A DNA stretch of 64,000 nucleotides from an uncultured bacterium (lineage in GTDB: Bacteria; Patescibacteriota; Kazan-3B-28), in assembly GCA_963695435.1 (NCBI GenBank), contig OY968788.1:54781-118780 (forward strand). Reading direction: 5' to 3'. Positions 3,500 to 20,420 of the stretch are shown here, in pieces. The notes below the pieces were generated by a model. That model was not told the origin of the DNA. It ran no database searches and saw only the letters and a program-made list of their open reading frames with translations. Position 1 is the stretch's first letter, and every line of letters begins with the position of its first letter. Both the position numbers and the translations under genes were made by a program.

Positions 3500-4371
3500 C
3501 TTCGGCGTACCTTATTAAAAATAATTTGTTTGAGTTCGGGTTGGTCGAGGGCGTATTCCAGCATCGTGTCGAGATAGGTTGCCGGGTCACCAGTGGTGAG
3601 CCATTTGCCGCCTTTTACTTTGCAGGTAGCAACCCGCCCCTTGTGGGCTAAAATTTTGATGCCATCAACAACCCAGTATTCTCCACCCTTTCCTTTCTTG
3701 ATTTTGGCCAAGGCATCAAAGATTTCGGGAGTGAAAAGGTAGCGTCCAAATGAGGCGAGTTGAGATGGAGCTTTGTCGGGTGACGGTTTTTCAACGATGT
3801 CTTCGAGAAAGTCGGTTTTCCCTGACAATTTAACTATGCCATACTTTGACACTTCTTTCTTATCCACTTCCTGTACTCCAATAACGCTACACCCGTATTT
3901 GTGGTAAGCATCAATGAGTTGTTTGGCAAAAGGAACTTTGGATTTTACTAAATCATCGCCGAATGCATATATAAATGGTTCGTTGCCAATAAGATCTTTG
4001 GCGGTGATGGCGGGGAGGGCATTGCCGTAGCCTTCGATTTGGCGCATATAACTGAAACTCGCCAGCTGACTTATTTTTTTGATTCTGGCCACTAACTCTT
4101 TTTTACCTTGGGCGAGTAGCATGTTTTCCAATTCGAACGATGGATCAAAGTGATCCTCGACAGATTTTTTCTGCCAGTTGGTAATCAAAATAATCTCTTT
4201 GATGCCGGCGGCAGACAGTTCTTCGGCAATGTACTGAACAATCGGCTTATCAAGAATTGGAAGCATTTCTTTGGGGCTGGCTTTGGTCGCTGGTAAGAAA
4301 CGAGTGCCGAAACCGGCAATCGCGATGACAGCCTTACGGACTTTGGGCAGTTTGATTGGTTTGGGGGTCAT
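3496..4371 (-). CDS. galU: UTP--glucose-1-phosphate uridylyltransferase
   Basis: AIAGFGTRFLPATKASPKEMLPILDKP is a sugar-nucleotidyltransferase signature. The GalU family layout is present. Confidence 0.85.
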   Translation of the reverse strand: MTPKPIKLPKVRKAVIAIAGFGTRFLPATKASPKEMLPILDKPIVQYIAEELSAAGIKEIILITNWQKKSVEDHFDPSFELENMLLAQGKKELVARIKKISQLASFSYMRQIEGYGNALPAITAKDLIGNEPFIYAFGDDLVKSKVPFAKQLIDAYHKYGCSVIGVQEVDKKEVSKYGIVKLSGKTDFLEDIVEKPSPDKAPSQLASFGRYLFTPEIFDALAKIKKGKGGEYWVVDGIKILAHKGRVATCKVKGGKWLTTGDPATYLDTMLEYALDQPELKQIIFNKVRRR

Positions 4372-4772
4372 GGCTTTTTGATGCGGATTATTTTGGATTG
4401 TCTAGGGTTGAGAATTGGCATAACGATAGTTAGGATCCCCTCGTGAAGGGACGCGCGAGTAGCATCGGGATTGACCGAAACGGGAAGATCGACAGAACGG
4501 GACAGCTCTCCCCAGTAGCATTCTTCGGTATAGGCCCGGTCGGGCTCATCGATGCTGGTTGGCGAAACCGCTGCTTTGTGAATGGTAAGTTGGTTTTGGC
4601 CCAGAGACACGCTGACTTTGTTGATGTCTACTCCTACAATAGGAGCTCTTGCTATCAATTTATCGCCGACACGCAGGATATCAATAGGCAGCTCCAGTTC
4701 CGCTGAATCAGCGGAGGAGGGCTGGTCGGTTGTCTTGGGGTCTGACTTGGTGAAAAAAGTGTCTCGTAACAT
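4368..4772 (-). CDS. Hsp20/alpha-crystallin small heat-shock protein
   Basis: An alpha-crystallin domain is recognisable. The stop overlaps the galU start (ATGA). Confidence 0.75.
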   Translation of the reverse strand: MLRDTFFTKSDPKTTDQPSSADSAELELPIDILRVGDKLIARAPIVGVDINKVSVSLGQNQLTIHKAAVSPTSIDEPDRAYTEECYWGELSRSVDLPVSVNPDATRASLHEGILTIVMPILNPRQSKIIRIKKP

Positions 4773-4855
4773 ACCTATACCAGTATCGGATATCAGAGTG
4801 AGCCCAGCAAGGGGAGAGGGAATAAGAGATGGGGTATAATAAGGAGCGTCGGCTT

Positions 4856-7168
4856 ATGAAAAAACTGATAATCACTAGTCTGGGGGTGTTTGTTGTAATG
4901 GCGGGTTCACTTATGACCTCGCCTAGTTTAGCAGTCGCGCAAGCGGCTGGGCTAAAAGCCGAGCTAGTTTCGGCCAACTCACCGATTACCGCTAAGGCGG
5001 GTACAGCTGTCGAATTTACGGTAGCAATCAAAAACATTGGCAGCACCACATGGACCAATAGTGGCAGTAACGCGGTGAATCTTGGGACTGTAAAACCGAT
5101 GGATCACAAAAGTCGGTTCGCAACTTCCGGCTGGATCGGAAACAACCGACCGGCAACAATGCAAGAAACAACAGTGGCGGCTGGAGAGACGGCGCATTTT
5201 AGATTTTTGGCAGCAGCAACTGGCAGTGGCAAGGTGACTGATTATTTTGGGTTGGTGATGGAGCGAGTGAGCTGGTTTAGTTTATCGATTCCCTTAACCA
5301 TCAATGTCCAGCCGGCAATTTTTAAGGGTGAATTGGTGGCTCAATCGGCAGCTAGTTTTGAATTGAAGACACAGGAAACTGTTACCGTTACAGTTCGTGT
5401 AAAAAATACAGGCGATGTGGCGTGGGCAAACAGCGGGGCAGGAGCAGTGAAGGTTGCAACTAGTAGCCCATTTGATAGAGCGAGCAATTTGTATCATTCG
5501 AGTTGGCTTAGCAAAAATCGAGCGGCGATGGCGAGTACGGTAATAGAATCGGGGGATGGGGGCGAGTTTACTTTTACGATTCAGGCTCCTAACAAGACAG
5601 GCATTTTTAAAGAAGAGTTTAGTTTGGTAGCGGAGGGAACGGCGTGGATACCGATAAAATTTTGGCTAACAGTGAAAGTAGTGCCTGCGGTGTGGTCGGC
5701 GGAGTTGGTTAACCAATCAACCAAAGTCGTGTCTTTGCCGCCGGAGGATACTGCTACTTTGTGGGCGGAGTTTAAGAATACTGGCAATACGACTTGGCGA
5801 GGAGATGGAGCCAACGCGGTTAAATTGGGGACAGCGCGTAAGTTAGATAGAGTCAGCGTATTCCAAGACAGTTCGTGGTTGAGCAAAAATCGAGTGAAGG
5901 CAATTAGTCCGGTGGAGATTGCCCCCGGAGAGACTGGGCGGTTTGAGTTTGCGATCAAAGCGCCTAATAATCTGGGGAAATATCAAGAATATTTTCGGCC
6001 AGTAGTCGAGGGGGTCACATGGCTTAATGACAGCGGTTTGACGTGGGAAATTACAGTAGAAGAAGAGCTAACTATTAAGGATCCAATTCGGGTTGGCATT
6101 GCTTCTACGGCTGACACGATTACGGTTCAGGGAAATAGTTTTGTAATTCGGCGGGGCAGCGACAAGGGATTGGTAAAGAAAGTATCGGGGGGCAGTGTGG
6201 TGGTGACGGCGTTCAATGGCGGGTATAGTTTGAATACGGGCGAGTCGGTAAATGATTGGCTAAGATTTATTCCGCTCAACAATGCGTTGCTGTCGGTTCG
6301 CACAAGCGGGATTGGCAGTAGTTACGATACATTCCGTGGGATTATTGATGTTCGGCGATCAAGTATGTCGGGTAATGTTTGGGTGGTGAATGTATTGGAG
6401 TTTGAAGATTATATGAAGGGGATTGCTGAAGTTCCGGAAGGCTGGCCGGCTGAAGCGCAGAAGGCGCAGATGGTGGCAGCGCGTACTTATGCTGTGACGA
6501 AGTTGAAGGCTCCGGTAGCTGACATTTTTGATATTTATGATGATACTCGGGATCAGGTTTATTACGGATACGATTATGAATCCAGCCGACCAGGACTAGT
6601 TGCGGCGGCGGAATCAACAAGAGGAATAATTATCAAATACAACGGTGTGCCAATCTCTGCTTATTATTTCTCGGACAGTGGCGGTTATACCGAAAATGTG
6701 GAAAATGTTTGGACGAAGACTATCCCGTATCTAAGAGCTGTGCCCGATCCGTATGCTAAGCCGATTGAATGGACGGCGACTTTGACCCAAGATTATTTGC
6801 AAGGTCGTTTTGATGAATCGCTGGATGTTGCTCCGGGCGCGGATGTGATTGTGGGCATTGCGGTAACCGAGCGGAATCCATCGGGCAGATTGAAAACGAT
6901 AACATTTACTATGCAAAGCGGTAAAGTTGTACCGATTTCGTCCAAGACATTTGATTATCTGACCAATGGCAATGAAGTTAAAAGCATGAAATTTGATGTT
7001 GTTGCTACTGGGGACCCCGCACGGCCAGACTTTATTTTTACCGGACAAGGTTGGGGTCATGGCGTGGGGATGGCGCAGTGGGGCGCGAAGAATATGGCTT
7101 TGCAGGGTAAAAATTATCAGGAAATTCTGACTTATTATTACACTGGTGTTACCGTCGGCTCTCGATAA
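4856..7168 (+). CDS. Secreted SpoIID/LytB-domain protein. Three N-terminal tandem repeats of about 120 aa with an Ig-like beta-sandwich are followed by a C-terminal SpoIID amidase-enhancer/lytic domain.
   Basis: The start is chosen at MKKLIITSL, with AAGGAG 9 nt upstream; the ORF track starts 9 codons earlier. The repeats read TVKV.NTG...W.NSG...LVAEG.AWI. The C-terminus has the SpoIID-type YYFSDSGGYTENVENVW. Confidence 0.8.
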   Translation: MKKLIITSLGVFVVMAGSLMTSPSLAVAQAAGLKAELVSANSPITAKAGTAVEFTVAIKNIGSTTWTNSGSNAVNLGTVKPMDHKSRFATSGWIGNNRPATMQETTVAAGETAHFRFLAAATGSGKVTDYFGLVMERVSWFSLSIPLTINVQPAIFKGELVAQSAASFELKTQETVTVTVRVKNTGDVAWANSGAGAVKVATSSPFDRASNLYHSSWLSKNRAAMASTVIESGDGGEFTFTIQAPNKTGIFKEEFSLVAEGTAWIPIKFWLTVKVVPAVWSAELVNQSTKVVSLPPEDTATLWAEFKNTGNTTWRGDGANAVKLGTARKLDRVSVFQDSSWLSKNRVKAISPVEIAPGETGRFEFAIKAPNNLGKYQEYFRPVVEGVTWLNDSGLTWEITVEEELTIKDPIRVGIASTADTITVQGNSFVIRRGSDKGLVKKVSGGSVVVTAFNGGYSLNTGESVNDWLRFIPLNNALLSVRTSGIGSSYDTFRGIIDVRRSSMSGNVWVVNVLEFEDYMKGIAEVPEGWPAEAQKAQMVAARTYAVTKLKAPVADIFDIYDDTRDQVYYGYDYESSRPGLVAAAESTRGIIIKYNGVPISAYYFSDSGGYTENVENVWTKTIPYLRAVPDPYAKPIEWTATLTQDYLQGRFDESLDVAPGADVIVGIAVTERNPSGRLKTITFTMQSGKVVPISSKTFDYLTNGNEVKSMKFDVVATGDPARPDFIFTGQGWGHGVGMAQWGAKNMALQGKNYQEILTYYYTGVTVGSR

Positions 7169-7841
7169 AGTAGGGACATTTGTGCGGGACGCGATTGCGC
7201 CGGCGTTTTGTGTGCAGTGTGGGACATCCGGTGGGTGGCTGTGTTCGGTATGTGCCGAGCAAATTTTTTTAGTGAAAGAGCAGGTTTGTTACCGATGCAG
7301 CAAATTGAGCGAACACGGCAAAACTTGTGAAAGATGTAGGAGACACACGGAACTAAATGGCGTAATCGTGGCGACACACTATGAAAGTGGGCCAGTGCGG
7401 GAGCTGGTTCATAAATTGAAGTATGAGGGGCTGACCGATTTGGCGGGAATCTTGGGTTGGATTTTATTTCAGGGAACTGTAGTAAAAGAATGGAAAGATT
7501 GGGTAGTAGTGCCTGTCCCATTACACCCAAGTAAATTTTCTAGTCGGGGGTTCAACCAAGCGGACTTGTTGGCGTCTCGGTTGGCGAAGTATTTGAAGTT
7601 GCCGTATCAAATAAAATGGCTTAGGCGAGTGCGGGCAACGGAAACTCAAACAGAGCTGACTCGTTCGCATCGCCAAGTAAATGTATATAAGGCTTTTTCA
7701 GCGAGGGGCGACTTGAGGGGGAGGAAGATTTTGCTGGTGGACGATGTAATGACGACGGGTGCGACACTGGAGGCGGCAGCACAGGCATTGAAGGACGCGG
7801 GGGCACGGCAAATCTGGGGAGTCGTAGTGGCACGCGGTTAG
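7146..7841 (+). CDS. comFC: ComF family protein (phosphoribosyltransferase domain, N-terminal Cys4 zinc finger)
   Basis: CVQCG...CSVC and CYRC...CERC zinc knuckles are present. The C-terminal PRTase motif is ILLVDDVMTTGATL. A GTG start overlaps the previous gene, so the start is uncertain. Confidence 0.75.
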   Translation: MLPSALDKVGTFVRDAIAPAFCVQCGTSGGWLCSVCAEQIFLVKEQVCYRCSKLSEHGKTCERCRRHTELNGVIVATHYESGPVRELVHKLKYEGLTDLAGILGWILFQGTVVKEWKDWVVVPVPLHPSKFSSRGFNQADLLASRLAKYLKLPYQIKWLRRVRATETQTELTRSHRQVNVYKAFSARGDLRGRKILLVDDVMTTGATLEAAAQALKDAGARQIWGVVVARG

Positions 7842-7879: not shown

Positions 7880-8650
7880 ATGACTATTCGAGTAAAAGCG
7901 CCAATGAGAGTCTGTTTTGGGGGAGGGCTTTTGGATATTTTCCCGATAAATGCGATTGTCGGAGGGTATACCGTAAATGCTGCAATTGATAAATTCGTCA
8001 CGGTTGAAATTGAAGACGGCGAAGGTTTGAAAATTAATGCCAGAAACGAAGAGCTTCCTGGGCTTCTGGCTGATATCTACAATCTAAAAAATAAAACCAT
8101 CACGATTAGCGAAGATGTTTTTGGGTTTAGAGGATTTGCCCAAAGTGCCGCTTTGGGAGTGGCACTAGGGTTTGCCGCGACCGGAGACAAGGAGACAGCG
8201 GCTCTGATTTCCTACGAAACAGAAAATAAGATTTTGGGAGTTATGGGCGGATACCAGGATCAAATTGCGGCGAGTAGAGGAGGTTTCAATATTATTACGA
8301 ATCGCGCCGGCGCCTACAGCGTAGAAACTCTGACTGATTTCAACCAAGATTTTCTGGAGAGAATAAAAAAAGCAATTCCGTTCTACTCCAAAGCATATGC
8401 CCATAGTGGATTGAAAAATGAGGAAGTGGTGGATAAGGTTGTGGCTGGGGACGAAGAAACTATTAGTATTCTAAAAGAGCTTCGTAACTGCACCGAACAC
8501 ATAGTGCAGGCTCTAAGAGAGCAAAATGCGGATGAATTTATCAAATGGTGTTTGGAAGAAAGGCGGCACCACGATAAATTGCGCCAACGCGAAGGCGAGC
8601 AGTTGGTGGGATACAACTTCGAGTTTGAGGGCGTAAGAAAAATAGACTAG
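7880..8650 (+). CDS. GHMP-kinase-like protein (sugar/mevalonate-kinase fold), function unknown
   Basis: The N-terminus RVCFGGGLLD and the block GGYQDQIAASRGG are present. The glycine-rich motif is weak. An AGGGAG ribosome-binding site precedes the ATG. Confidence 0.45.
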   Translation: MTIRVKAPMRVCFGGGLLDIFPINAIVGGYTVNAAIDKFVTVEIEDGEGLKINARNEELPGLLADIYNLKNKTITISEDVFGFRGFAQSAALGVALGFAATGDKETAALISYETENKILGVMGGYQDQIAASRGGFNIITNRAGAYSVETLTDFNQDFLERIKKAIPFYSKAYAHSGLKNEEVVDKVVAGDEETISILKELRNCTEHIVQALREQNADEFIKWCLEERRHHDKLRQREGEQLVGYNFEFEGVRKID

Positions 8651-9636
8651 CCGACCAACCCGATTTTCTTTTTGACTTCGGCAAGAGTTGGGTTAGCAAT
8701 GCGGGCAGCTTTGGCAGCGCCCGTTTTTAGGATTCGGTCGAGGAGACGGCGATTTTTCATGTAATGGTCGATTTTTTTCTGGATAGGCGCAAGAGAGGTG
8801 ACGACTAATTCAGCCAGCTCTTTTTTGAAATCGCCGTATCCTTTGCCCGCAAAATATTTTTCGATTTGGGACTCGGTTTTGCCCGAAAGCATTTGGTAGA
8901 TGGTGAGGAGATTGTACAATCCTTCCCGCTTAGGGTCGAATTTGATTGTACTGCCAGAATCGGTGACGGCTCGCATAATTTTTTTGCGGATAATTTCGGG
9001 GCTGTCGGTCAGGGCGATGTAACTCCCCGCAAGGTCGCTCTTACTCATTTTTCTACTCGGATTATCCAATGCCATAATGCGGGCACCAGTTTTGCCAATG
9101 ACGGGCTCGGGGACAATAAAAGTTTTTCCGAAACGATTGTTGAATCTCTCTGCTAGGTTGCGTGCCAGCTCAACATGCTGTTTTTGATCTTCGCCGACAG
9201 GAACGACTCCCGCTTGGTACAATAGAATGTCAGCGGCCATCAGCACGGGATAATCAAACAGTCCCACGGAAGTGTTGTCGGCGTTGCCCTTTTGAGACTT
9301 GTCTTTGTATTGAGTCATACGGGAAAGTTCGCCCATATGAGCGATGGTGTTAAGAACCCAAGCCAGCTCGGTGTGGGCGGGGACAGAAGATTGGGCGAAG
9401 ATAATAGATTTCCTGGGATCGATCCCGGAAGCTAGATAGATTGCTGTATTCAGGTAGGTACTCTCGGCTAATTCTTTCGGATCCTGTGGGACAGTAATGG
9501 CATGGAGGTCAACCACGCAAAAGATACTCTCATATTTGTGTTGAATTTCCACCCAAGGCAGGATTGCTCCGAGGTAATTACCAATGTGGATTACTCCGCT
9601 GGGTTGGATACCTGAAAAGGCGCGCTTCTTGGTCAT
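8647..9636 (-). CDS. trpS: Tryptophan--tRNA ligase
   Basis: The class I motifs HIGN (HIGH-like) and KMSKS are present in a TrpS-type architecture. Confidence 0.9.
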   Translation of the reverse strand: MTKKRAFSGIQPSGVIHIGNYLGAILPWVEIQHKYESIFCVVDLHAITVPQDPKELAESTYLNTAIYLASGIDPRKSIIFAQSSVPAHTELAWVLNTIAHMGELSRMTQYKDKSQKGNADNTSVGLFDYPVLMAADILLYQAGVVPVGEDQKQHVELARNLAERFNNRFGKTFIVPEPVIGKTGARIMALDNPSRKMSKSDLAGSYIALTDSPEIIRKKIMRAVTDSGSTIKFDPKREGLYNLLTIYQMLSGKTESQIEKYFAGKGYGDFKKELAELVVTSLAPIQKKIDHYMKNRRLLDRILKTGAAKAARIANPTLAEVKKKIGLVG

Positions 9637-9667
9637 AGATTGTGATAGTTAGTATCTTCAAGATAAC

Positions 9668-10600
9668 ATGAAAGTAATGGGCAAAAAACTGACGGGGGGA
9701 CGAGTAAGGCAACGATTGATACCCTTGGTTTTTTTTGGAGCTGATTACTCGGCTCGTGGGCGGACTCTAACGATACCGCAACTTCGCCGCTACGGTTGGC
9801 AGAGGGATTGGTCGTTTGAGGAGATAAAGGAAGCTCTGCAGGAGTTGGATTTGCCGAGTGTCGAAGGAACCTATTATTGGGGTGACCCGCGAAGTCGCCA
9901 GAGCGGTAATCCCGAGTTGGCTAAGAAATTCTGGCGGATGGCGAGAAAAAAAGTAAATTTATTCAGATGGATCCCCTTCGTCAAATTGGTAGGAGTGATG
10001 AACAGTTTGTCTCACGACAATGTTGGGAGGGATTCCGACATAGATTTCTTTATTGTGGCGAGGGAGGGGAGGATATGGACGGTGAGAGCAATAACATTGT
10101 GGCTTTTGAGGTTTCTTGGGTGGCGGGCAGGAAGACAAAAATATTTGAAAATTTCACCCGATTTGTTTTTGAGCGAGGACGGGATGGATTTATCCCAGGC
10201 CGGAATCCCCAACGATTATTTGCTGGCGTATTGGGCGTGCGATTTTATTCCGGTATACAAAGCGGAATTCTTTAGAAAGTTTTGGCAGGCAAATGCGTGG
10301 CTAAAAACGACCTTGCCTGTGGCGTATCGTTCACCCCAATACCGTCCGGAGGTGGAAGTGGGGGGCGGGTCACTTCGTTCCATCCTTTTGGTTGAAAAAA
10401 TGTTTGGTGGGAAATGGGGAGATAATATAGAAGCCAAGCTAAAACAAAAGCAATTGGGTATTATTGATAGGAATGTGAAGAAGCTCGGGCAGAACCCGTT
10501 AGCGCTGGCGAACGACAGAATAGTAAAGATCCATTTTGGCGATGACAAAAGATATCATCTTAGGGCAGTGGTGGAAGAGTTCTTGGCTGAAGAGGTTTGA
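9668..10600 (+). CDS. Pol-beta-superfamily nucleotidyltransferase-domain protein of unknown function
   Basis: The motif NSLSHDNVGRDSDIDFFIV fits the [GS]S..G..SD[IV]D minimal nucleotidyltransferase signature. The remainder has no recognisable domain. Confidence 0.5.
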   Translation: MKVMGKKLTGGRVRQRLIPLVFFGADYSARGRTLTIPQLRRYGWQRDWSFEEIKEALQELDLPSVEGTYYWGDPRSRQSGNPELAKKFWRMARKKVNLFRWIPFVKLVGVMNSLSHDNVGRDSDIDFFIVAREGRIWTVRAITLWLLRFLGWRAGRQKYLKISPDLFLSEDGMDLSQAGIPNDYLLAYWACDFIPVYKAEFFRKFWQANAWLKTTLPVAYRSPQYRPEVEVGGGSLRSILLVEKMFGGKWGDNIEAKLKQKQLGIIDRNVKKLGQNPLALANDRIVKIHFGDDKRYHLRAVVEEFLAEEV

Positions 10601-11867
10601 GCAGGGGGTTTTGTGGTTGACGGTTTTTATGCTGCCCTGGCAATTGCGGCATACTTTTTGCTTCGCGAGTTACGGCGGAAATTACTTTGAGTATTCTTCG
10701 ATCCAGTTGTACGCTACCGATCTTTTGATCGTTGTTTTGTTGGTTCTTTGGATTCTGCGCTGGCCGAAACTGCAGTTACCTGCCAAATGGGTTTGGCAGC
10801 CCTTGGTTCTCTGGCTGGTTTGGATAACAGTTTCCGGTTGGTACGGGTTGGACTGGCAGAATAGCTTACAACAGTCGGTTCATTACTGGCTGATGTTCGG
10901 GTGGCTTCTGTACCTATTTAATAATGTGAAAGATTTGAGGCAGATATTTTGGCCATTTGTTTGGGGAGTGGCGCTTCAGGCAGTTTGGGGGATAGCGCAG
11001 TTTATAGGGAATCATGATTTGGGAATGCAGATTTTGGGTGAGTCGCCATTGGGGCCAAATCAAGGTGGAGTAGCGGTCGTGGGGGACGAAGCGCATCGGC
11101 AAATCAGAGCGCAGGGGTTGTTGCCGCATCCAAATATGTTGGGAGGATTATTGGTATTTTCTATTTTGCCACTGGTTCAGCTGTATCGTGACGCAAGTAA
11201 AAAACAAAAGTACTGGTTGTTAGCGGTTGCGGGGTTGGTGGGGGTGGCATTAGTGTTGTCATTTTCACGGACGAGCTGGGTAGTCGCGCTAATAATAATG
11301 TTGGTGATGGTTTTGGTTGCGATATTTAGAAAACGCGAAAGGTTTATTTGGCTCCCATTAGTAGCTTTGCTTTTGGGGGCAGGGGTAGCTGTGGGGTGGC
11401 AGTGGTCAAATGTGACAGGGAGATTTTCGACCGAATCACGGCTGGAACAAAAATCGGTGGAGGATAGGGTGGGGAGCCTGGGTGATTGGGGAAAAATTAT
11501 TAGCGGTCACGAATTTGCGGGGGTGGGTACTGGCAACTATACTCAAGCACTAATACAACTGAAGCCAAACCAGAAAGTCTGGACTTACAAACCAATACAC
11601 GATATCTATTTGCTGATAACAGCAGAAACGGGAGCGGTGGGGTTAGCGATCTGGCTATGGATGATGTTTGTGGTTGGGTGGCTTTGGCTCAAGCTTATTA
11701 GGCAGAACTGGGCAAATTGGTGGCTGGGGCTGCCGTTAATTGGGATATTGGGGGCGGGGGTAGTAGATCATTGGGCGGTATCTTTTCAGCAAGGAAGGTT
11801 GTTGTTCTTTCTGGCTCTGGCATTGATTATTTTAGAATCTAAGGTATTATTGGAGCGACAGGAGTAA
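10542..11867 (+). CDS. O-antigen ligase/Wzy_C-family polytopic membrane protein
   Basis: About 10 transmembrane segments are predicted. The loop SFSRTSWVVALI is typical of Wzy_C/WaaL. The start is uncertain: an ATG at 10542 overlaps the upstream gene by 59 nt, and a TTG near 10611 has an AGGGGG ribosome-binding site. Confidence 0.6.
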   Translation: MTKDIILGQWWKSSWLKRFEQGVLWLTVFMLPWQLRHTFCFASYGGNYFEYSSIQLYATDLLIVVLLVLWILRWPKLQLPAKWVWQPLVLWLVWITVSGWYGLDWQNSLQQSVHYWLMFGWLLYLFNNVKDLRQIFWPFVWGVALQAVWGIAQFIGNHDLGMQILGESPLGPNQGGVAVVGDEAHRQIRAQGLLPHPNMLGGLLVFSILPLVQLYRDASKKQKYWLLAVAGLVGVALVLSFSRTSWVVALIIMLVMVLVAIFRKRERFIWLPLVALLLGAGVAVGWQWSNVTGRFSTESRLEQKSVEDRVGSLGDWGKIISGHEFAGVGTGNYTQALIQLKPNQKVWTYKPIHDIYLLITAETGAVGLAIWLWMMFVVGWLWLKLIRQNWANWWLGLPLIGILGAGVVDHWAVSFQQGRLLFFLALALIILESKVLLERQE

Positions 11868-11878
11868 TTTCTAATCTT

Positions 11879-12277
11879 ATGGAAGAACAAGAACCAATTA
11901 GAGAAGTCTTGCCGCAGCCGGTTCACAGCGGGAATTTGAGCAGTGAGGATAAGGTCTTTGCGGCATTGTCGTATGTTTCGATAATGTTTATTATTCCGCT
12001 GATTTTGCGGCACGATCAAGAGGATGTTTACTTTCATGCTCGGCAGGGGATGGTGTTGTTTGGCGCGGAGGTAGTCGTCTGGTTTCTATTGTTTATGCTG
12101 GAATCTTTTGTGGTAGCGCTGATGCCAAGCAATAGCTTGGGGCTTGTGGCGATTTTGGGGGCAGCGGCTTGGATATTGTTCGTGGGGCTAAGCATTGTTG
12201 GGATTTACTTTATCTTTCGCAATAAGCGGTGGGAAATGCCGGTATTAGGGAAGATTGCCAAGAAGATTGAAGTTTAA
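11879..12277 (+). CDS. DUF4870-family small membrane protein
   Basis: The sequence AALSYVSIMFIIPLIL...DVYFHARQG matches the DUF4870 pattern. There are 3-4 transmembrane helices. Confidence 0.6.
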   Translation: MEEQEPIREVLPQPVHSGNLSSEDKVFAALSYVSIMFIIPLILRHDQEDVYFHARQGMVLFGAEVVVWFLLFMLESFVVALMPSNSLGLVAILGAAAWILFVGLSIVGIYFIFRNKRWEMPVLGKIAKKIEV

Positions 12278-12293
12278 GTAGACTAACGAACAG

Positions 12294-12369
12294 GGGCCGT
12301 TGGCTCAGTTGGTAGAGCGCCTCCATGGCATGGAGGAGGTCACCGGTTCGAATCCGGTACGGTCCACCA
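12294..12369 (+). tRNA. tRNA-Ala (anticodon GGC)
   Basis: A G3:U70 identity pair lies in the acceptor stem gggccgt/acggtcc. The anticodon loop is auGGCau. CCA is encoded. Confidence 0.85.
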
Positions 12370-12502
12370 GTCTTCGCTACCTTACGGTAGCTACGCCTGG
12401 CTTACGCCATTCTACTTTCTACTAGAATGACTAAGTCTGGCTGATGACAAATATAAAAAATAAAAGCGAAGACTGCCCTGCATAGCTCGGAGAGCGAAGC
12501 AC

Positions 12503-12547
12503 GGGCAAAACAAAATTGCCCTTGTGAGGCAATTTTGTCGTTTTAGA
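12503..12547. terminator. Bidirectional rho-independent terminator hairpin
   Basis: The stem caaaattgcc/ggcaattttg with loop cttgtga is T-rich on both sides. It lies between tRNA-Ala and the convergent surface-protein gene. Confidence 0.6.
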
Positions 12548-12562
12548 ATTGTTAGTTAGTTT

Positions 12563-13657
12563 CTATCTTTTTATCAGACTGACGTTGGCATAACTTTGCT
12601 TGGTTATTCCATCGCTGGTAGCTGTGGCGTTAATTAATACAGACCAAGCGTTGTGGGTTTTGTCGTTAAAGCTAAATGTAACCGGAACACTGCTAATACC
12701 ATCTGCTCCCGTTGTGGGTGTCCCAAACTTTACACTTACCCAAGGAGGAGTTGCGTTATTTTTTGCCCAGCTGAAATCTACTCCTTGCGTTATTATTTTT
12801 CCGGATATATCAAGAGCTTTGGCTGTAAAGGTATAAGTTCTTCCAGAAAAGTAGGTGCCGACTGCAGGTGCCACTACAACACTATTTAATGCCGGTCGTT
12901 GGGGGTCAACCGCAACATATTTGGCGGTTGATACAGTTGTTCCACGGTAGGTAGCATCAAGAAATACAATAAAGTAGCCACCGTAAGCTCCCGTATTGAT
13001 TCCTATAAATTTTACCCAAGGCTTAATGCCTTGCGGGTCGTGGAAAGTAGCGGTAGCGGTGACATTTTGAATTCTCCACTTGTATTCGACTTGGGCATTG
13101 TCGAGGGCAGCACCCGTAGTGTCTAATGCTTTGGCAGTAAGAACCAAACCCCCGACTGTGGGCTTGCGGTCGAAGCTAATTTGAGCGGAAGCAATTTGTT
13201 TGGCTGGAGCAACTCGAATCACGGCTATAGAAGTCTTGTCGGTGTTACCGAAACTGGCTGTAACTTTCAAAATACTCCATCCACCGTTATTTGGAGCGGA
13301 AACTGCTGTCAGGCGGACTTGATTTGATGAATTGGAACTTATGCTGGTTTTAACTCCCACACCACTGCCCGTATCATCAGTGACCCACTTATAGGTAACG
13401 GCGCCAGATGCAGAAACACCTTTTGGAATGGCGGTGAAGTAAGTACTCTGTCCTTCTGATAATTGAGCGCTAGGTGGGCTAGTTTCTACCGAACTTAAAA
13501 CATTGCCGGTCTGTGTGCCGGCTTCTGTGCTGAAGATATCGTTCTTTGCGACGTACCAGCCAAGTAGGCCGATAACTATGACAGCGGCAACTACAAACAT
13601 CCAACTAGGGATAGTTAGTTGCTTTTGTCTCTTGCGAGAGACTCTTCTTTTTTTCAT
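12563..13657 (-). CDS. Cell-surface protein with an N-terminal transmembrane anchor and Ig-like/Big-type beta-sandwich repeats
   Basis: The start is chosen at MKKRRVSRKRQ. One transmembrane segment is followed by Ser/Thr/Gly-rich repeated beta-strand modules. Confidence 0.45.
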   Translation of the reverse strand: MKKRRVSRKRQKQLTIPSWMFVVAAVIVIGLLGWYVAKNDIFSTEAGTQTGNVLSSVETSPPSAQLSEGQSTYFTAIPKGVSASGAVTYKWVTDDTGSGVGVKTSISSNSSNQVRLTAVSAPNNGGWSILKVTASFGNTDKTSIAVIRVAPAKQIASAQISFDRKPTVGGLVLTAKALDTTGAALDNAQVEYKWRIQNVTATATFHDPQGIKPWVKFIGINTGAYGGYFIVFLDATYRGTTVSTAKYVAVDPQRPALNSVVVAPAVGTYFSGRTYTFTAKALDISGKIITQGVDFSWAKNNATPPWVSVKFGTPTTGADGISSVPVTFSFNDKTHNAWSVLINATATSDGITKQSYANVSLIKR

Positions 13658-13777
13658 TACTTTAAGTTGATTAATAAATATAGAAGGTGCAAGAGATAAA
13701 TACACCTGAATTATACCTTAGTTTATTGCAAAGATTGCAAGGTTAGGGGGTGAGCGGGTTTTTGTTATGATATACCC

Positions 13778-16147
13778 GTGGCAGAAGAAAAATACGATCA
13801 CAAACTGATTGAGCCGAAATGGCAAAAATACTGGGCAGATAACCAGATTTTTAAGGCGATTGATGGGGACAAAAAAGCGAAGTATTACGCTTTGGATATG
13901 TTTGCCTACCCATCAGGAGATGGGTTGCACACAGGGCACCCTAGAAGCTACACGGCGACTGATATTTTTGCGCGCTACTATCGGATGAAGGGCTACAATG
14001 TGATGCGGCCAATTGGGTGGGATGCGTTTGGGCTCCCTGCGGAAAACTATGCGATCAAAAAAGGTGTACATCCAAGTAAGACTACTGCGGACAATATTGC
14101 GAACTTTACTCGACAGGTAAAGTCGTTTGGTTTTGCCTACGATTGGGGCAGGGAGGTGAATACTGCCGATCCAAATTATTACAAATGGACGCAGTGGGTT
14201 TTTAAAGTTTTGTATGACAACGGATTGGCTTATCAAAAAGAGGCGTATGCCAACTGGTGTCCAAAAGACCAAACAGTACTTGCCAACGAGCAGGTGGTGA
14301 ATGGTTGTTGCGATCGGTGCGGGGCACAAGTGGAACAAAAGAAACTGAAGCAGTGGTTTTTCAAAATCACAGATTTCGCTGAAGAGCTTTTGGCAGGACT
14401 GGATAAAATCGACTGGCCTGAATCCACAAAGACGGGACAGCGAAACTGGATTGGAAAAAGTGAAGGAGCGGAAATCGCATTCGCGATTAGCGGGTCAGCG
14501 GGTCAGCAGGTCAGCGGGTCAGAAATTAGAGTGTTTACGACTAGGCCGGATACATTGTTTGGGGCGACTTACTTAGTATTGGCGCCGGAGCATGAATTAG
14601 TAGAGAAGCTCACGACTGCGGAGCAGAAAAAGGCGGTTGAAAAATATGTAGCCGACACCAAGTTAAAGACCCATTTGGATAGAACGATGGCGAAGGATAA
14701 GACAGGCGTGTTTACGGGCAGTTTTGCTATCAACCCGGCGACTAAAAAAGAAATTCCAATTTGGATAGCCGATTATGTTCTGACCGATTATGGCACGGGT
14801 GCGATTATGGCGGTGCCGGCGCATGATGAACGAGATTTTGATTTTGCTAAAGAGTTTAAATTGCCAGTGGTGCAGGTTATTCAATCGGACGAGAAACTTT
14901 ACACGGGGGATGGTTCATTAATGAATTCGGGTGAGTTTGACGGACAAGACTCTAAAACGGCTGGACCAAAGATGGCGAAAAAGTTTGGAGGGGAAATAAC
15001 CGTTCAATATAAATTGCACGATTGGCTGATTTCTCGTCAGCGTTATTGGGGAGCTCCGATTCCAATTGTTTATTCTGCAGACGGGGAGACTCAAAGTGTA
15101 GCGGTGGAAGATTTGCCGGTGATATTGCCCAGTGATGTTGATTTCAAACCAACGGGCGAATCGCCATTGGCGAAGTCTAAAACTTTCCAAACGGGGGTTG
15201 AAGAAAAATACGGCAAGGGCGCCAAAAGGGAACTAGATACAATGGATACTTTCGTTTGTTCGTCATGGTATTATTTGCGTTACTGCGACTCCAAAAACGC
15301 TCAAGAATTTGCGGGTAAAAAATCCTTGAAATACTGGATGCCGGTGGATTTGTATATTGGTGGGGCAGAGCATACCAATGGGCATTTGTTGTATGCAAGA
15401 TTTATTACCAAGGTTTTGCACAAACTCGGTTATTTGGATTTTGATGAGCCGTTTTTGAAACTGCGTCATCAAGGATTGGTGCTTGGAAGTGACGGGGAAA
15501 AAATGAGCAAATCCAGAGGAAATGTGATTAATCCTGACGATTTGATTGAACAATATGGCGCTGACACAGTGCGGATGTATGAAATGTTTATGGGGCCGTT
15601 TGACCAGCCCATTGCTTGGGATACTAATGGGGTGGTGGGAGTACGGAAGTTTTTGGACCGAGTGTACCGAATTATTAGTGAGAGAGCAGGTATAAAAGGA
15701 AAGCAAAATGACAATATCCATGGATTGATAAAGAAGGTGACCGAGGATATCGGGGTGATGAAGTTTAATACGGTAGTGAGTAGCTTTATGGAATTTACCA
15801 ATGAGGTTTCCAAAGACGATAGTAGTAATTGGCTCCCAGACTTTGTGAAACTTTTGAGCCCGTTTGCTCCGCACTTGGCAGAAGAATTATGGCAAGAAGT
15901 TTTAGGTCAGAAGGGTAGTGTCTCAGAAGCTTCATGGCCGGAATTTGATGAAGCCAAAACGAAAGCAAAAACAGTCACTATTGCGGTGCAAGAAAAAGGA
16001 AAACTGCGTGGAACGGTCGAGATGCCAGCAGGGGCGAGTGAGACTGATGTTTTGGTAGAAGTTAATAAAAATGAAAAACTGGCAGGCATCACCAAGGCTA
16101 GTTCCAAACATATTTTTGTGAAGGATAGGATTATTAATTTTATTTAG
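13778..16147 (+). CDS. leuS: Leucine--tRNA ligase
   Basis: It has a GTG start. The sequence PYPSGDGLHTGHPRSYTATD carries the HIGH-region motif HTGH, and KMSKS is present. The editing domain is short. Confidence 0.9.
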   Translation: MAEEKYDHKLIEPKWQKYWADNQIFKAIDGDKKAKYYALDMFAYPSGDGLHTGHPRSYTATDIFARYYRMKGYNVMRPIGWDAFGLPAENYAIKKGVHPSKTTADNIANFTRQVKSFGFAYDWGREVNTADPNYYKWTQWVFKVLYDNGLAYQKEAYANWCPKDQTVLANEQVVNGCCDRCGAQVEQKKLKQWFFKITDFAEELLAGLDKIDWPESTKTGQRNWIGKSEGAEIAFAISGSAGQQVSGSEIRVFTTRPDTLFGATYLVLAPEHELVEKLTTAEQKKAVEKYVADTKLKTHLDRTMAKDKTGVFTGSFAINPATKKEIPIWIADYVLTDYGTGAIMAVPAHDERDFDFAKEFKLPVVQVIQSDEKLYTGDGSLMNSGEFDGQDSKTAGPKMAKKFGGEITVQYKLHDWLISRQRYWGAPIPIVYSADGETQSVAVEDLPVILPSDVDFKPTGESPLAKSKTFQTGVEEKYGKGAKRELDTMDTFVCSSWYYLRYCDSKNAQEFAGKKSLKYWMPVDLYIGGAEHTNGHLLYARFITKVLHKLGYLDFDEPFLKLRHQGLVLGSDGEKMSKSRGNVINPDDLIEQYGADTVRMYEMFMGPFDQPIAWDTNGVVGVRKFLDRVYRIISERAGIKGKQNDNIHGLIKKVTEDIGVMKFNTVVSSFMEFTNEVSKDDSSNWLPDFVKLLSPFAPHLAEELWQEVLGQKGSVSEASWPEFDEAKTKAKTVTIAVQEKGKLRGTVEMPAGASETDVLVEVNKNEKLAGITKASSKHIFVKDRIINFI

Positions 16148-16166
16148 ATTCTGAAACGAGTTCAGA

Positions 16167-16808
16167 ATGACGAGAGAAGCTATGGACGAATTACAGCCAA
16201 GTACTAAAGATACGATTTCGGTTGAAGCCGAATGGAAACGAGTGGAGCAATTGTTGGCATCTAAAGAAGACGCCGCATGGGCAATGGCGGTGGTGGAGGC
16301 GTTTAAGATTTTCCATCAAGTTTTGGATGAAGTAAGTTTTGGTGAGACGGTGGAGGAGCAAATTCACAATGCCGGTGAATTGTTCCGTGATGTTCGGGGG
16401 GTGTTGGCAGCAGAAAAAGTTTATCAGCATATTTTGGGGAAAGTTGGTCATCGGATAACTAAGAGTGACGCCAGCAAAGCCAGTGCAGCATTCTTGCAGG
16501 CGATTTTGGATATGATCGGGCGGGATTGGGAGAGTCGGGGCTGGCTAGACCGGTGGCTTTCGGGGCTAAATTATTTTTGGGGGACTCACCCGAAGGCTTT
16601 GGTGGGATTTTTGGCGGGGATATTGATTTTTGTAGTGCTGGTTTGGTTTTTGGCCGACACAGACCTTGGGAAGTGGGTAGCGGGGTTGATGGTTGGGTTT
16701 GCCCATTTTGTACTGGACAACCCTATCTTATTGATAGCGCTAGGAGCGGCTTTGGTGATTTCGATACTGCTTGGGATGACACTCTCCGGTAGGCGACACA
16801 AGCGGTAG
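16167..16808 (+). CDS. Hypothetical membrane protein
   Basis: An N-terminal soluble part is followed by 3 C-terminal transmembrane helices. No motif is recognised. Confidence 0.4.
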   Translation: MTREAMDELQPSTKDTISVEAEWKRVEQLLASKEDAAWAMAVVEAFKIFHQVLDEVSFGETVEEQIHNAGELFRDVRGVLAAEKVYQHILGKVGHRITKSDASKASAAFLQAILDMIGRDWESRGWLDRWLSGLNYFWGTHPKALVGFLAGILIFVVLVWFLADTDLGKWVAGLMVGFAHFVLDNPILLIALGAALVISILLGMTLSGRRHKR

Positions 16809-16862
16809 CTGATAGAATTAGGGGTACCGTAATACTAACTTCTTGAGCTTAGGGAGGTGAGA

Positions 16863-19800
16863 GTGAAGTTTGTGCATCTGCATTTGCACAGCCATTACAG
16901 CTTGCTCGACGGTCTTACCAAGATCCCGAGTTTAGTGAAGAAAGTGGTTGAGCAAGGGGGAGAGGCAGTGGCTCTGACCGACCACGGGGTTATGTATGGG
17001 GTCATCGAATTCTATAAAGAATGTAAGGCGGCCGGCATCAAGCCGATTATCGGAAACGAAGTTTATGTAACGGCGGGGAAAATGTCGGATCGCGAAGCAA
17101 CCAGAGGTGAGCGAAATTATTTTCATTTGACGCTGCTCGCTAAAGACTTGGAGGGATATCGGAATTTGATGAAGCTGACGACCGAGGCGCACCTGCGGGG
17201 GTTTTACTATAAACCGCGAGTGGATCACGAAACGCTGGAAAAATATGCTGGTGGGTTGGTGGTAATGTCGGGATGTCTGAAGGGCGAAATATCGCAAGCG
17301 ATTATTGCTAATAATTTAGATAAAGCCAAAACTTTGGCACTGTGGCATAAAAAGGTGTTTGGTGACGATTTTTATTTGGAGATGCAAAGCCACCCCAATA
17401 TTCCTGAACAGCAGAGGGTGAATGATGGGCTGATTGCCTTATCTCAAGAATTGAATATCCCTTTAGTCGCAACTACTGACTCTCATTACTTGGACATAGA
17501 TGACGCAGAGGCACATGATGCTTTGCTCTGTGTCCAGACGGCGACTCGAGTGGCTGATACCAATCGAATGTCGATGATGAACGAACATTTTCATGTGAGT
17601 AGCCCGGAGGAAGTTATTGAGGCGTTCAGCCATGTCCCGGAGGCGATTGAGAATACGGTAAAAATTGCTGAAAAATGTAATTTGGAAATCCCGATGGGAA
17701 AATTAGTGTTCCCGAACTTTGTCCCACCGGACGGTAAGACGATTGACGATTATTTTGCCGAACAAGTTGAGATTGGCTTAAAGATAAAGTTTGGCGATAC
17801 CGTCCCCGCTGATGTGCGCGAACGGATGGATTATGAAATATCGGTAATCGCGCAAATGGGATACAAGGGCTACATGCTAACGGTGGCTGATTTTGTGAAT
17901 TGGGCAAAAGATCAGGGCATCGTAGTTGGGCCGGGACGCGGGAGCGCCGCGGGCAGTATGGTGTCGTATATTTTGCGAATTACCGAAGTGAACCCCTTGG
18001 AGCACGGATTACTGTTTGAACGGTTTTTGAACCCAGAGCGGGTGTCGATGCCGGATATTGATTTGGATTTTGCCGATGATCGCAGGGCGGAAGTGATTGA
18101 ATATGTCAGACAAAAATATGGCAACGAGAAGGTGGCGCAGATCATCACTTTTGGGACGATGGCATCGCGTGCGGCAGTGCGGGATGTTGGACGGGTTTTG
18201 GGGATGCCATACAACGAAGTGGACAGAATTGCCAAACTCATCCCTCCTCCGCAGCAGGGGAAATTTACGCCACTAATCAAACATATCGAGGAGGTGGCTG
18301 ACCTAAAAGCAATGTATGCCGAAAGCGAATCGGTAAAGAAATTGCTGGATTTATCGATGAAATTGGAAGGGACGATTCGGCACGCATCGGTTCACGCGGC
18401 AGGAGTGGTGATTGGGGATAGAGAACTCACTTACTACATGCCACTGCAATACTCGCCTTCGGACGACAAAATTTTGGTGAGTCAATATTCGATGTATCCC
18501 TTAGAATCACTTGGTTTATTGAAAATGGACTTTTTGGGTTTGAAGAACCTGACGATTATTAAGAACGCTTTGAGGATTATTCGAAAAGTTCACGGCGTAG
18601 AGGTTGATGTGACGAAGTTGCCGTTTGATGACAAAAAAACTTTTGAGCTGCTGGCGGCTGCCAATACTACTGGGGTGTTTCAGTTGGAAGGCGAGGGGAT
18701 GCGGAAAAACTTGAAAGAGCTTCGGCCAACCGTGTTTGGGGACATTGCGGCTATGGTGGCTCTGTATCGACCGGGGCCGATTCAGTTTTTGCCAGACTTT
18801 ATTGCCAGAAAACGGGGGCAGAAAAAGATTGAGTATATCCACCCCAAGCTTGAGCCGATTTTGAAAGATACTTACGGGATTGCTGTCTACCAAGAACAGG
18901 TGCTCCAGATCGCTCGGGATTTGTGTGGGTTTACTTTGGGGGAGGCAGATGTTCTGCGCAAAGCGATTGGGAAAAAGAATGTCAAACTGCTCAACGAACA
19001 GAAGGAAAAATTCATTGCCGGCGGGGTGGCACATGGAGTTCGCCCAGACATTGCCGAACAACTGTTTCATTTTGTTGAACCGTTCGCGTTATATGGGTTT
19101 AACCGAGCCCACTCGGTGAGCTACGCGGTAATTGCGTATTGGACGGCTTATTTGAAGGCGCATTTCCCCAATGCTTTTATGGCGGCATTGATGACATCGG
19201 ATCAGCAGGACTTAGACAAGATTGCTACGAATATTGCCGAATGTGAGCATATGAAAATTCGGGTCTTGCCACCGTCGGTAAACAAAAGTTTTACCGGCTT
19301 TGCCGTAGTAAAAGAAACTGGCGATATTGTTTTTGGGCTAAACGCGGTAAAAAATGTAGGGCAAAAAGTGTCGGATATGATTGTAGAAGAACGGCAGAAA
19401 AATGGCTTGTACCAGGACTTGGCAGATTTTGTAAAACGGGCGGGGAGGGAAGCGATTAACCGTAAGACAATGGAAAGCTTGATTCTGGCGGGAGCGCTTG
19501 ATGATTTTGGAGACAGAAAAACTTTGTTTAGCAATATTGATTCGATCCTGAATTTTTCCACAGAGCATCAACGGCAAGCTAACTCGAACCAGCTGGGGAT
19601 GTTTGGGGCGGCTGAAAAAGCGACTCGGCAAACTATTCAACTTTCTCAAATCGAAGAAGCGACTGACCAAGAAAAATTGGCGTGGGAAAAAGAGTATCTA
19701 GGGACTTTTGTTTCGAGACATCCCCTAAAGGAGATAATGCCGAAGTTGTCCGGTATCGTGAGATCAACAACGACGCTTTCGGGAGCGGATGACGGGCGGG

Positions 19801-20381: not shown

Positions 20382-20420
20382 GGGAGTGTCGTACTTTAAC
20401 AAATAAGGAGGTGGCCGCAG

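Follow-up and report, generated by a model that had tools for sequence, protein, structure and literature searches.

A nucleotidyltransferase-fold protein encoded with a WaaL/PglL-type membrane protein in Patescibacteria: a candidate envelope-glycan module

What is the role of a soluble nucleotidyltransferase-like protein whose gene runs into that of an O-antigen-ligase-like membrane protein? The question is raised by positions 9668-12277 of a 64-kb stretch of DNA from an uncultured member of the Patescibacteria (64,000 nucleotides (nt) of contig OY968788.1, hereafter the window), which are filled by three co-directional genes, here called A, B and C. A large part of bacterial diversity falls within the Patescibacteria. 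They live attached to host cells, with a surface whose chemistry is barely known, and the A-B pair bears on it. The answer favored here is that the pair serves the cell envelope, and we hold the chances evenly balanced that A and B form a conserved core envelope-glycan module of Patescibacteria. Glycan or lipid modification, one of two roles that a first-pass annotation of the window had offered, is the best supported reading because the A-B linkage survives rearrangements of the surrounding genes and because the Bacteroidota homologs of A are found in glycan clusters; the chemistry itself is presumptive. The genes of the locus are as follows.

Gene A: positions 9668-10600, plus strand; 310 amino acids (aa), soluble, three domains: winged helix, Pol-beta-type nucleotidyltransferase core, helical C-terminal domain.
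Gene B: positions 10536-11867, plus strand; 443 aa counted from a TTG at 10536, with an ATG at 10542; Wzy_C/O-antigen ligase superfamily.
Overlap of the 3' end of A and the 5' end of B: positions 10536-10600, plus strand; 65 nt if B starts at the TTG, 59 nt if it starts at the ATG (10542).
Gene C: positions 11879-12277, plus strand; 132 aa, approximately three membrane spans, weak match to DUF4870 (PF09685).

The open reading frame (ORF) coordinates bore out the anatomy described in the first-pass annotation, in which a 310-aa protein is followed by a membrane-protein gene overlapping its end and then, 11 nt past the stop codon of B, by a third gene. A second possible start of A is the ATG at 9677. 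Homology between the window B and 64 distant B proteins begins as early as residue 17, and the start of B was therefore placed at 10536 or 10542. The overlap implies that A and B would be co-transcribed, and they are probably also translationally coupled. Upstream of A, trpS (tryptophanyl-tRNA synthetase) lies divergently on the minus strand with 31 nt between the two start codons (9637-9667), so that the promoters must reach into coding sequence unless the leaders of the transcripts are very short. Scans for promoters and terminators over the region gave no informative signal, and each of A, B and C occurs only once within the window.

Fold and active site of protein A

Hydropathy analysis of A gave no membrane segment. 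The window protein had no match in Pfam, NCBIfam or PADLOC, and comparison with the Pfam nucleotidyltransferase models gave none at E≤0.1. Matches of the single A sequence to Fic proteins in the Protein Data Bank (PDB; E 0.22, over the winged-helix region) were judged to be due to chance. An identical A is encoded on a 560-kb NCBI contig, and relatives of 67-86% identity all came from Patescibacteria metagenome bins. An A profile searched against 1.84 billion cluster representatives matched 4,488 clusters at E≤1e-3, of which 2,267 also passed E≤1e-10; almost all of these proteins have approximately 300 aa. When 46 family members were scanned against Pfam, 13 matched NTP_transf_2 (PF01909) and 11 weakly matched Polbeta (PF18765). 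The NTP_transf_2 threshold was cleared only by the Flavobacterium homolog (28.9 bits against 21). Several homologs from Patescibacteria and Peregrinibacteria (P0169, P0186, P0205-P0207 and P0209, approximately 503 aa) carry an N-terminal GGACT domain, and one family representative (P0092, 496 aa) carries a C-terminal NUDIX hydrolase; these fusions suggest a small-molecule, nucleotide-linked chemistry.

The structure of A was modeled with AlphaFold2 from an alignment of 101 diverse sequences with approximately 25% pairwise identity, giving a predicted local distance difference test (pLDDT) of 88.6 and a predicted template modeling score (pTM) of 0.88. The model contains three domains, and the label 'minimal' that had been given to A in the first-pass annotation was dropped. 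The domains and the central motif map to the DNA as listed.

Winged-helix domain: positions 9701-9877, plus strand; approximately residues 12-70, from the model.
Nucleotidyltransferase core: positions 9911-10258, plus strand; approximately residues 82-197, from the model and the structural matches.
S123-D124-I125-D126: positions 10034-10045, plus strand; predicted metal-binding DxD motif, with the pattern [DE]h[DE]h on strand 2.
C-terminal helical domain: positions 10262-10597, plus strand; residues 199-306, with a beta-hairpin at 278-289.

The modeled core comprises a helix at residues 82-101 and strands at 105-110, 125-131, 162-169 and 194-197, and the core alpha-beta-alpha-beta-alpha-beta fold of the Pol-beta superfamily is present. 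The winged helix holds a motif of F23, P33-L34 and E38 that is common to the Patescibacteria and the Bacteroidota/Chloroflexi branches of the family, and the C-terminal domain contains the invariant or near-invariant residues N209, W211, E255, K287, H289, D292 and R294.

The motif stretch of A reads N112-S-L-S-H-D-N-V-G120-R-D-S123-D124-I125-D126, in which the spacing of 11 residues between N112 and D124 is canonical for the hG[GS]-DxD arrangement. D124 and D126 are invariant in the 101 sequences and likewise in the homologs outside Patescibacteria, and S123 is conserved in at least 90%. The other invariant residues are N112, W189, N209 and K287, and 15 more positions are at least 90% conserved, S123 among them together with P103, R135, R140, R153, D183, P195, H289, D292 and R294. 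The Pol-beta-type signature claimed in the first-pass annotation is upheld by the invariant D124/D126 pair, the weak Pfam matches in relatives and the predicted structure; its spelling was right for SDID at 10034-10045 and off by one in the number of residues between the serine and the glycine. On the model and the alignment, A is a nucleotidyltransferase-fold protein with a signature beyond what chance would give.

When known structures were compared with the model, the matches were as listed, each with its score.

Minimal nucleotidyltransferase 2rff: 7.7.
AAD(9): 7.7.
ANT(4'): 7.6.
MNT: 7.4.
DrrA: 6.7.
LinB: 6.6.

The A family profile matched the MNT antitoxin 7ae2 and the minimal nucleotidyltransferase 1wot in the PDB over the core region. 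The structural neighbors nearest to A are enzymes that place adenosine monophosphate (AMP) on hydroxyl groups, namely the aminoglycoside and lincosamide nucleotidyltransferases, MNT, DrrA and GlnE. Despite this likeness, A shares only 9-18% identity with the O-nucleotidyltransferases ANT(4')/KNTase, AAD(9)/AadA and LinB and has no Pfam or HMM membership with them; it has an additional winged helix, a different C-terminal domain with an invariant K-x-H-x-x-D-x-R motif and an Asn in place of the motif glycine, and it is a core glycan-ligase-linked gene, not a resistance gene. It is also three times larger than the minimal nucleotidyltransferases and MNT antitoxins (2rff, 1wot, MntA 7ae2/8xeh), has no HEPN partner and lies outside any toxin-antitoxin context, being paired with a Wzy_C membrane enzyme.

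The comparison with CD-NTase, GlnE and LicC-type folds that the first-pass annotation had proposed supported the Pol-beta-type nucleotidyltransferase fold and gave membership in none of the three. Likeness to the CD-NTases of CBASS and to HalB of Hailong was confined to the generic core of approximately 105-125 residues, and the GlnE set of domains was not found in A. There was no match to the sugar-phosphate nucleotidylyltransferase families PF00483 or PF12804, the fold of A being Pol-beta-type and not GT-A-like, and no match to the Pfam LicD family.

The presence of GlnE, DrrA and MNT among the structural neighbors raises the question of whether A is a regulatory protein-AMPylase or UMPylase acting in the manner of GlnE, DrrA or MntA, which would turn ligase activity on or off by modifying a cytoplasmic loop of B, or another envelope-biogenesis protein, and would leave the glycan itself alone. 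This is distinctly unlikely, since the aminoglycoside and lincosamide (sugar-hydroxyl) nucleotidyltransferases match A equally well, the NUDIX and GGACT fusions indicate small-molecule chemistry, and the Bacteroidota homologs described below have as neighbors a methyltransferase and B12 radical-SAM enzymes, the sort of tailoring enzymes that usually build substituents.

Protein B and the linkage of the three genes

B matched the Pfam Wzy_C family at 7.7e-15 (55.4 bits, cut-off 31.7) over residues 232-374, and a simple hydropathy scan gave approximately 12 membrane spans with positively charged cytoplasmic loops, in agreement with the earlier description of B as a 12-transmembrane O-antigen-ligase-like protein. 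Hydropathy and the positive-inside rule placed a large loop (residues 291-355) carrying R296, E304, R311 and G329xGxG on the outside, ahead of the last three helices. Two of the conserved sites are:

His355: positions 11598-11600, plus strand; invariant, within the motif P353-x-H355-[ND]-I-Y-L...E364-x-G366 at the end of the outer loop.
F243-S244-R245: positions 11262-11270, plus strand; conserved Arg typical of Wzy_C proteins.

The outer loop preceding F243-S244-R245 contains R188 and R191. Among the B proteins R311 is invariant, R188, R191 and R296 are at least 90% conserved and R245 is 89% conserved; D411-H412 is also conserved across distant homologs. All of the conserved charged residues fall in predicted outer loops. 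A profile of 35 B proteins matched the PDB entries 9rmk ('Oligosaccharyltransferase', 1.1e-8) and 7tpg (WaaL, 2.2e-7), and His355 aligns with the HN motif of both. These matches, with the His motif aligned, identify B as a WaaL/PglL-type transferase with a predicted outward-facing active site. It has in common with WaaL and PglL the Wzy_C domain, the approximately 12 spans, the large outer loop ending in the His motif and the conserved outer-loop Arg, at low overall identity. To our knowledge Patescibacteria have no lipid A-core, so the acceptor of B must differ from that of WaaL, and we know of no WaaL or PglL with an obligate upstream nucleotidyltransferase partner.

The linkage of the genes was examined in 80 species-level loci from GTDB representative genomes, using A, B and C profiles on called ORFs. 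The sample was seeded from an eight-sequence alignment and is biased to members with the SDIDFF motif, the loci are phylogenetically non-independent, and the ORFs are longest-ORF calls, which slightly exaggerate overlaps. B was found directly after A on the same strand in 60 of the 76 evaluable loci and at position +2 from A in two more, and the median A-B gap was -11 nt (60 species). The neighborhoods of close relatives (67-86% identity) were wholly syntenic and therefore uninformative on linkage. Across the sample the flanks are of several types: NusA-YidC-PRC barrel-A-B-GroES-GroEL in many loci, UvrA-A-B in others, RmuC-x-A-B in L006 and TrpRS/A-B-C in the lineage of the window. The pair stays together while these flanking genes change. 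The first-pass annotation had proposed a conserved-neighborhood analysis and had named a lack of membrane-gene linkage in other genomes as the outcome that would tell against coupling; the analysis instead found linkage despite the differing flanks. Paired in approximately 80% of the species examined, and beside groESL, yidC and nusA, A and B likely belong to core envelope biology.

The third gene does not share this conservation. C adjoins the pair only in close relatives and at one other locus (L089), so the first-pass description of the DUF4870 protein as a coupled third member did not hold; C was rejected as part of the conserved module and is a lineage-specific passenger of A-B. The match of the window C to DUF4870 was itself weak (E 0.022, 15.2 bits, cut-off 25), and orthologs of approximately 70% identity have a precomputed PF09685 match, which is marked as weak in L001 and L004 and bears no such mark in L002 and L003. 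The 90%-identity cluster representative of C (P0386) is named 'fumarate reductase subunit D' by JGI/IMG, which is probably a misannotation.

The other role offered in the first-pass annotation was a cassette of a nucleotidyltransferase with membrane effectors, which would make A-B-C an anti-phage system resembling CBASS or Hailong. The resemblance is limited to the generic core of A noted above, in PADLOC neither A nor C had a match and that of B (PDC-M48A, E 0.04, 12.1 bits) was below threshold, and no relatives were found on plasmids or phages. The genes lie in conserved housekeeping context in most Patescibacteria and not in variable islands, B is a WaaL/PglL-family enzyme that has kept its catalytic residues and not a pore or effector, and C is not conserved with the pair. 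An anti-phage function is accordingly close to negligible in our judgment, and the cassette proposal was set aside.

Homologs in other phyla and the role of the A-B pair

Homologs of A were also found in Bacteroidota and Chloroflexi (E 1e-49 to 1e-61 with the A profile) with the same three-part layout, and the linkage to a Wzy_C gene extends to a second phylum. The gene order at L068 is GT4, GT4/DUF1972, Wzy_C, GT2 and then A, and at L090 it is Wzy_C and then A. In Flavobacterium (L088 and L094) A overlaps a B12 radical-SAM gene, which is followed by a methyltransferase and a second B12 radical-SAM gene. The L088 cluster (7953-15283) continues with a PglK-like ABC exporter and a GT4 gene, and the L094 cluster (10001-20903) with an EpsG-type polymerase, GT2, GT87 and a further radical-SAM gene. 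The first of the B12 radical-SAM proteins partly resembles PhpK-type P-methyltransferases, HpnJ and BchE, in each case with a score far short of the family cut-off.

The Flavobacterium branch of A is widespread and named only 'nucleotidyltransferase domain-containing protein'. Its 300-aa members (for example P0287 from F. capsici) are full-length homologs that agree with it in domain layout (winged helix, core, C-terminal domain); they have P103, S123, D124, D126, R140, P195, N209, W211 and K287 in common with the window A and are likewise near a Wzy-type (EpsG) polymerase and glycosyltransferases. They differ in having the canonical Gly112 and a Glu189 (Trp in Patescibacteria), in passing the NTP_transf_2 threshold and in sitting in a larger cluster with the B12 radical-SAM enzymes and the methyltransferase. 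These homologs provide cultivable and genetically tractable test systems.

The active sites of the two branches were compared using the window A and the proteins of L068, L074, L077, L078, L080, L083, L088 and L090. Homologs outside Patescibacteria have an invariant Gly at position 112, an invariant Glu at 189 and mostly Asn (11 of 14) at 183, whereas the Patescibacteria branch has invariant N112, D183 and W189 at the same sites. The exchanges look like a relocated or altered catalytic residue. The same residues could instead mark a catalytically dead nucleotidyltransferase-fold scaffold or chaperone that stabilizes or localizes B: the G[SG] motif has N112 in place of its glycine, W189 stands where the other homologs have their Glu, and the window A is recognized by no Pfam nucleotidyltransferase model. 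We regard a dead scaffold as very improbable, because D124 and D126 are invariant, S123, R135, R140, R153, D183, K287, H289, D292 and R294 are conserved to at least 90% in a manner typical of an active site, and the spacing from N112 to D124 has remained canonical.

Gene neighborhoods also bear on whether A acts on nucleic acids. UvrA is directly upstream of A in 15 of the loci L012-L090, UvrC is divergent from or downstream of A in the Peregrinibacteria-like loci L008-L010 and L093, PolA is upstream of A in Flavobacterium (L088 and L094), and UvrA, GIY-YIG and RmuC are upstream of A in L006. This adjacency may be due to chance in small, housekeeping-dense genomes or may reflect a link to nucleic acids. 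In the latter case A would be a nucleic-acid-directed or housekeeping nucleotidyltransferase (repair, RNA 3'-end modification) whose winged helix could bind DNA or RNA, and its position beside B would be inherited super-operon order. Several observations make this rather unlikely. The median A-B gap of -11 nt is tighter than that between UvrA and A (14-147 nt; 437 nt in L032), the pair remains intact when the flanks change, and the Flavobacterium A overlaps the radical-SAM gene by 8 nt yet lies 110 nt from PolA. The L068 and L090 homologs are beside Wzy_C or glycosyltransferase genes with no repair gene, the best structural matches of A are small-molecule and protein AMP-transferases, and A has no thumb or finger domains.

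A number of observations weigh against an active envelope-glycan module and have to be set beside the linkage. In the Patescibacteria branch the hG[GS] glycine is missing and its place is taken by the invariant Asn112, and the third catalytic carboxylate has no clear position, D183 being 98% conserved in that branch and E170 present in the majority only; the activity or substrate of A may consequently differ from those of classical nucleotidyltransferases. A shows no LicD-type or sugar-phosphate nucleotidylyltransferase similarity, and where proteins of the Patescibacteria branch are named they are almost always 'hypothetical protein', the sole exceptions being three 503-aa GGACT-fused homologs labeled 'gamma-glutamylcyclotransferase'. 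In 14 of the 76 loci A has no adjacent B, and B is likewise not adjacent in the Peregrinibacteria-like L008-L010, L091 and L093 and in the Saccharibacteria locus L061. In the Patescibacteria loci the pair has no immediate neighbor encoding a priming phosphoglycosyltransferase, a glycosyltransferase or a flippase, the repair genes UvrA, UvrC and PolA recur beside A, and part of the A-B linkage could be inherited synteny in a phylum of conserved gene order.

The analysis shows the fold of A with its invariant Asp pair, the superfamily, topology and outward-facing conserved residues of B, and the A-B linkage across rearrangements and in a second phylum. We infer that A is catalytically active, and its substrate and nucleotide, like the donor and acceptor of B, are proposed here as candidates. 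As an envelope-glycan module the pair would work on both sides of the membrane. A, soluble and cytoplasmic, would most likely use a nucleotide to tailor or activate a precursor at the inner membrane face, which may be a polyprenyl-linked glycan, a teichoic-like chain or its acceptor. After flipping, B would transfer the lipid-linked glycan outside the membrane to a final acceptor, possibly a glycolipid, a protein (pilin or S-layer protein) or a growing chain. LicD1 and LicD2 are cytoplasmic nucleotidyltransferase-fold phosphocholine transferases that decorate a precursor from a nucleotide-activated donor. With TacL they belong to the pneumococcal teichoic acid system, whose resemblance to A-B is a functional analogy. 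TacL is a Wzy_C ligase that joins a lipid-linked polymer to a glycolipid in a single-membrane bacterium (PMC5727136), and it illustrates that enzymes of the Wzy_C type are capable of the transfer proposed for B in cells of this kind.

A more far-reaching proposal, which we put forward tentatively and consider somewhat doubtful, is that the A family represents an unrecognized nucleotidyltransferase-fold class whose members, in the cytoplasm, are obligate partners of a WaaL/PglL-like ligase, in a pathway of surface lipoglycan synthesis or protein O-glycosylation that is near-universal in Patescibacteria and specific to them. The putative hallmarks of the class would be the winged helix, the variant N-x-L...SDID active site and the C-terminal K-x-H-x-x-D-x-R domain, and A could, for example, modify the lipid-linked precursor with a nucleotide- or phosphate-linked substituent, or it could license the ligase from the cytoplasm. 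If true, the pathway would belong to the core envelope processes of these episymbionts and would have a diverged counterpart in the glycan clusters of Bacteroidota.

A nucleotidyltransferase fold and a Wzy_C partner are already known as kinds. No description of the A family was found in the libraries and literature that were searched, nor of its architecture, variant motif or coupling to a WaaL/PglL-like enzyme across the phylum, and the literature on Patescibacteria, CPR or Saccharibacteria searched together with O-antigen ligase, Wzy_C or nucleotidyltransferase contained no description of the A-B pair. Knowing what A does would provide a function for a large family, thousands of members strong and so far 'hypothetical', and could reveal a new supply or control of O-antigen-ligase-type enzymes.

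Genes surrounding the locus

Downstream of C, a minus-strand ORF (12563-13705, 380 aa) matches no family and has a membrane anchor at its N-terminus; leuS (leucyl-tRNA synthetase) comes next. The segment between C and leuS (window 12278-13777) is variable among close relatives: L004 has a 363-aa minus-strand ORF, L001 (8799-10536) has three small ORFs including DUF7670, and in L002 (8612-8738) the segment is nearly empty. The leuS gene of L004 (GCA_022703745.1; 10025-12366) is split into parts of 207 and 588 aa by a frameshift or an assembly error.

A few kilobases upstream of A, positions 3496-4371 encode an NTP_transferase (PF00483, sugar-phosphate nucleotidylyltransferase), and a 256-aa GHMP-kinase-like ORF at 7880-8650 on the plus strand has weak matches to HddA and galactokinase. 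In L001-L003 the place of the latter is taken by a phosphoglucomutase/phosphomannomutase (approximately 3250-4620). By their family matches the two window genes are putative sugar-nucleotide supply genes upstream of A-B. Positions 4829-7168 on the plus strand encode a 779-aa secreted protein with a C-terminal SpoIID domain following repeated modules of approximately 100 aa, in which its orthologs have precomputed N_BRCA1_IG matches; it is followed by a ComF-like phosphoribosyltransferase with a double zinc ribbon at 7146-7841. A 142-aa protein encoded at 1487-1915 on the minus strand matches T4SS_pilin/TrbC-VirB2 pilin, and a T4SS_pilin-like gene is likewise near the A homolog in L008 and L009. 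The GC skew is positive in every 2-kb bin of the window (0.12-0.32) and the long ORFs are almost all on the plus strand, and the whole 64 kb appears to be a single leading-strand replichore segment.

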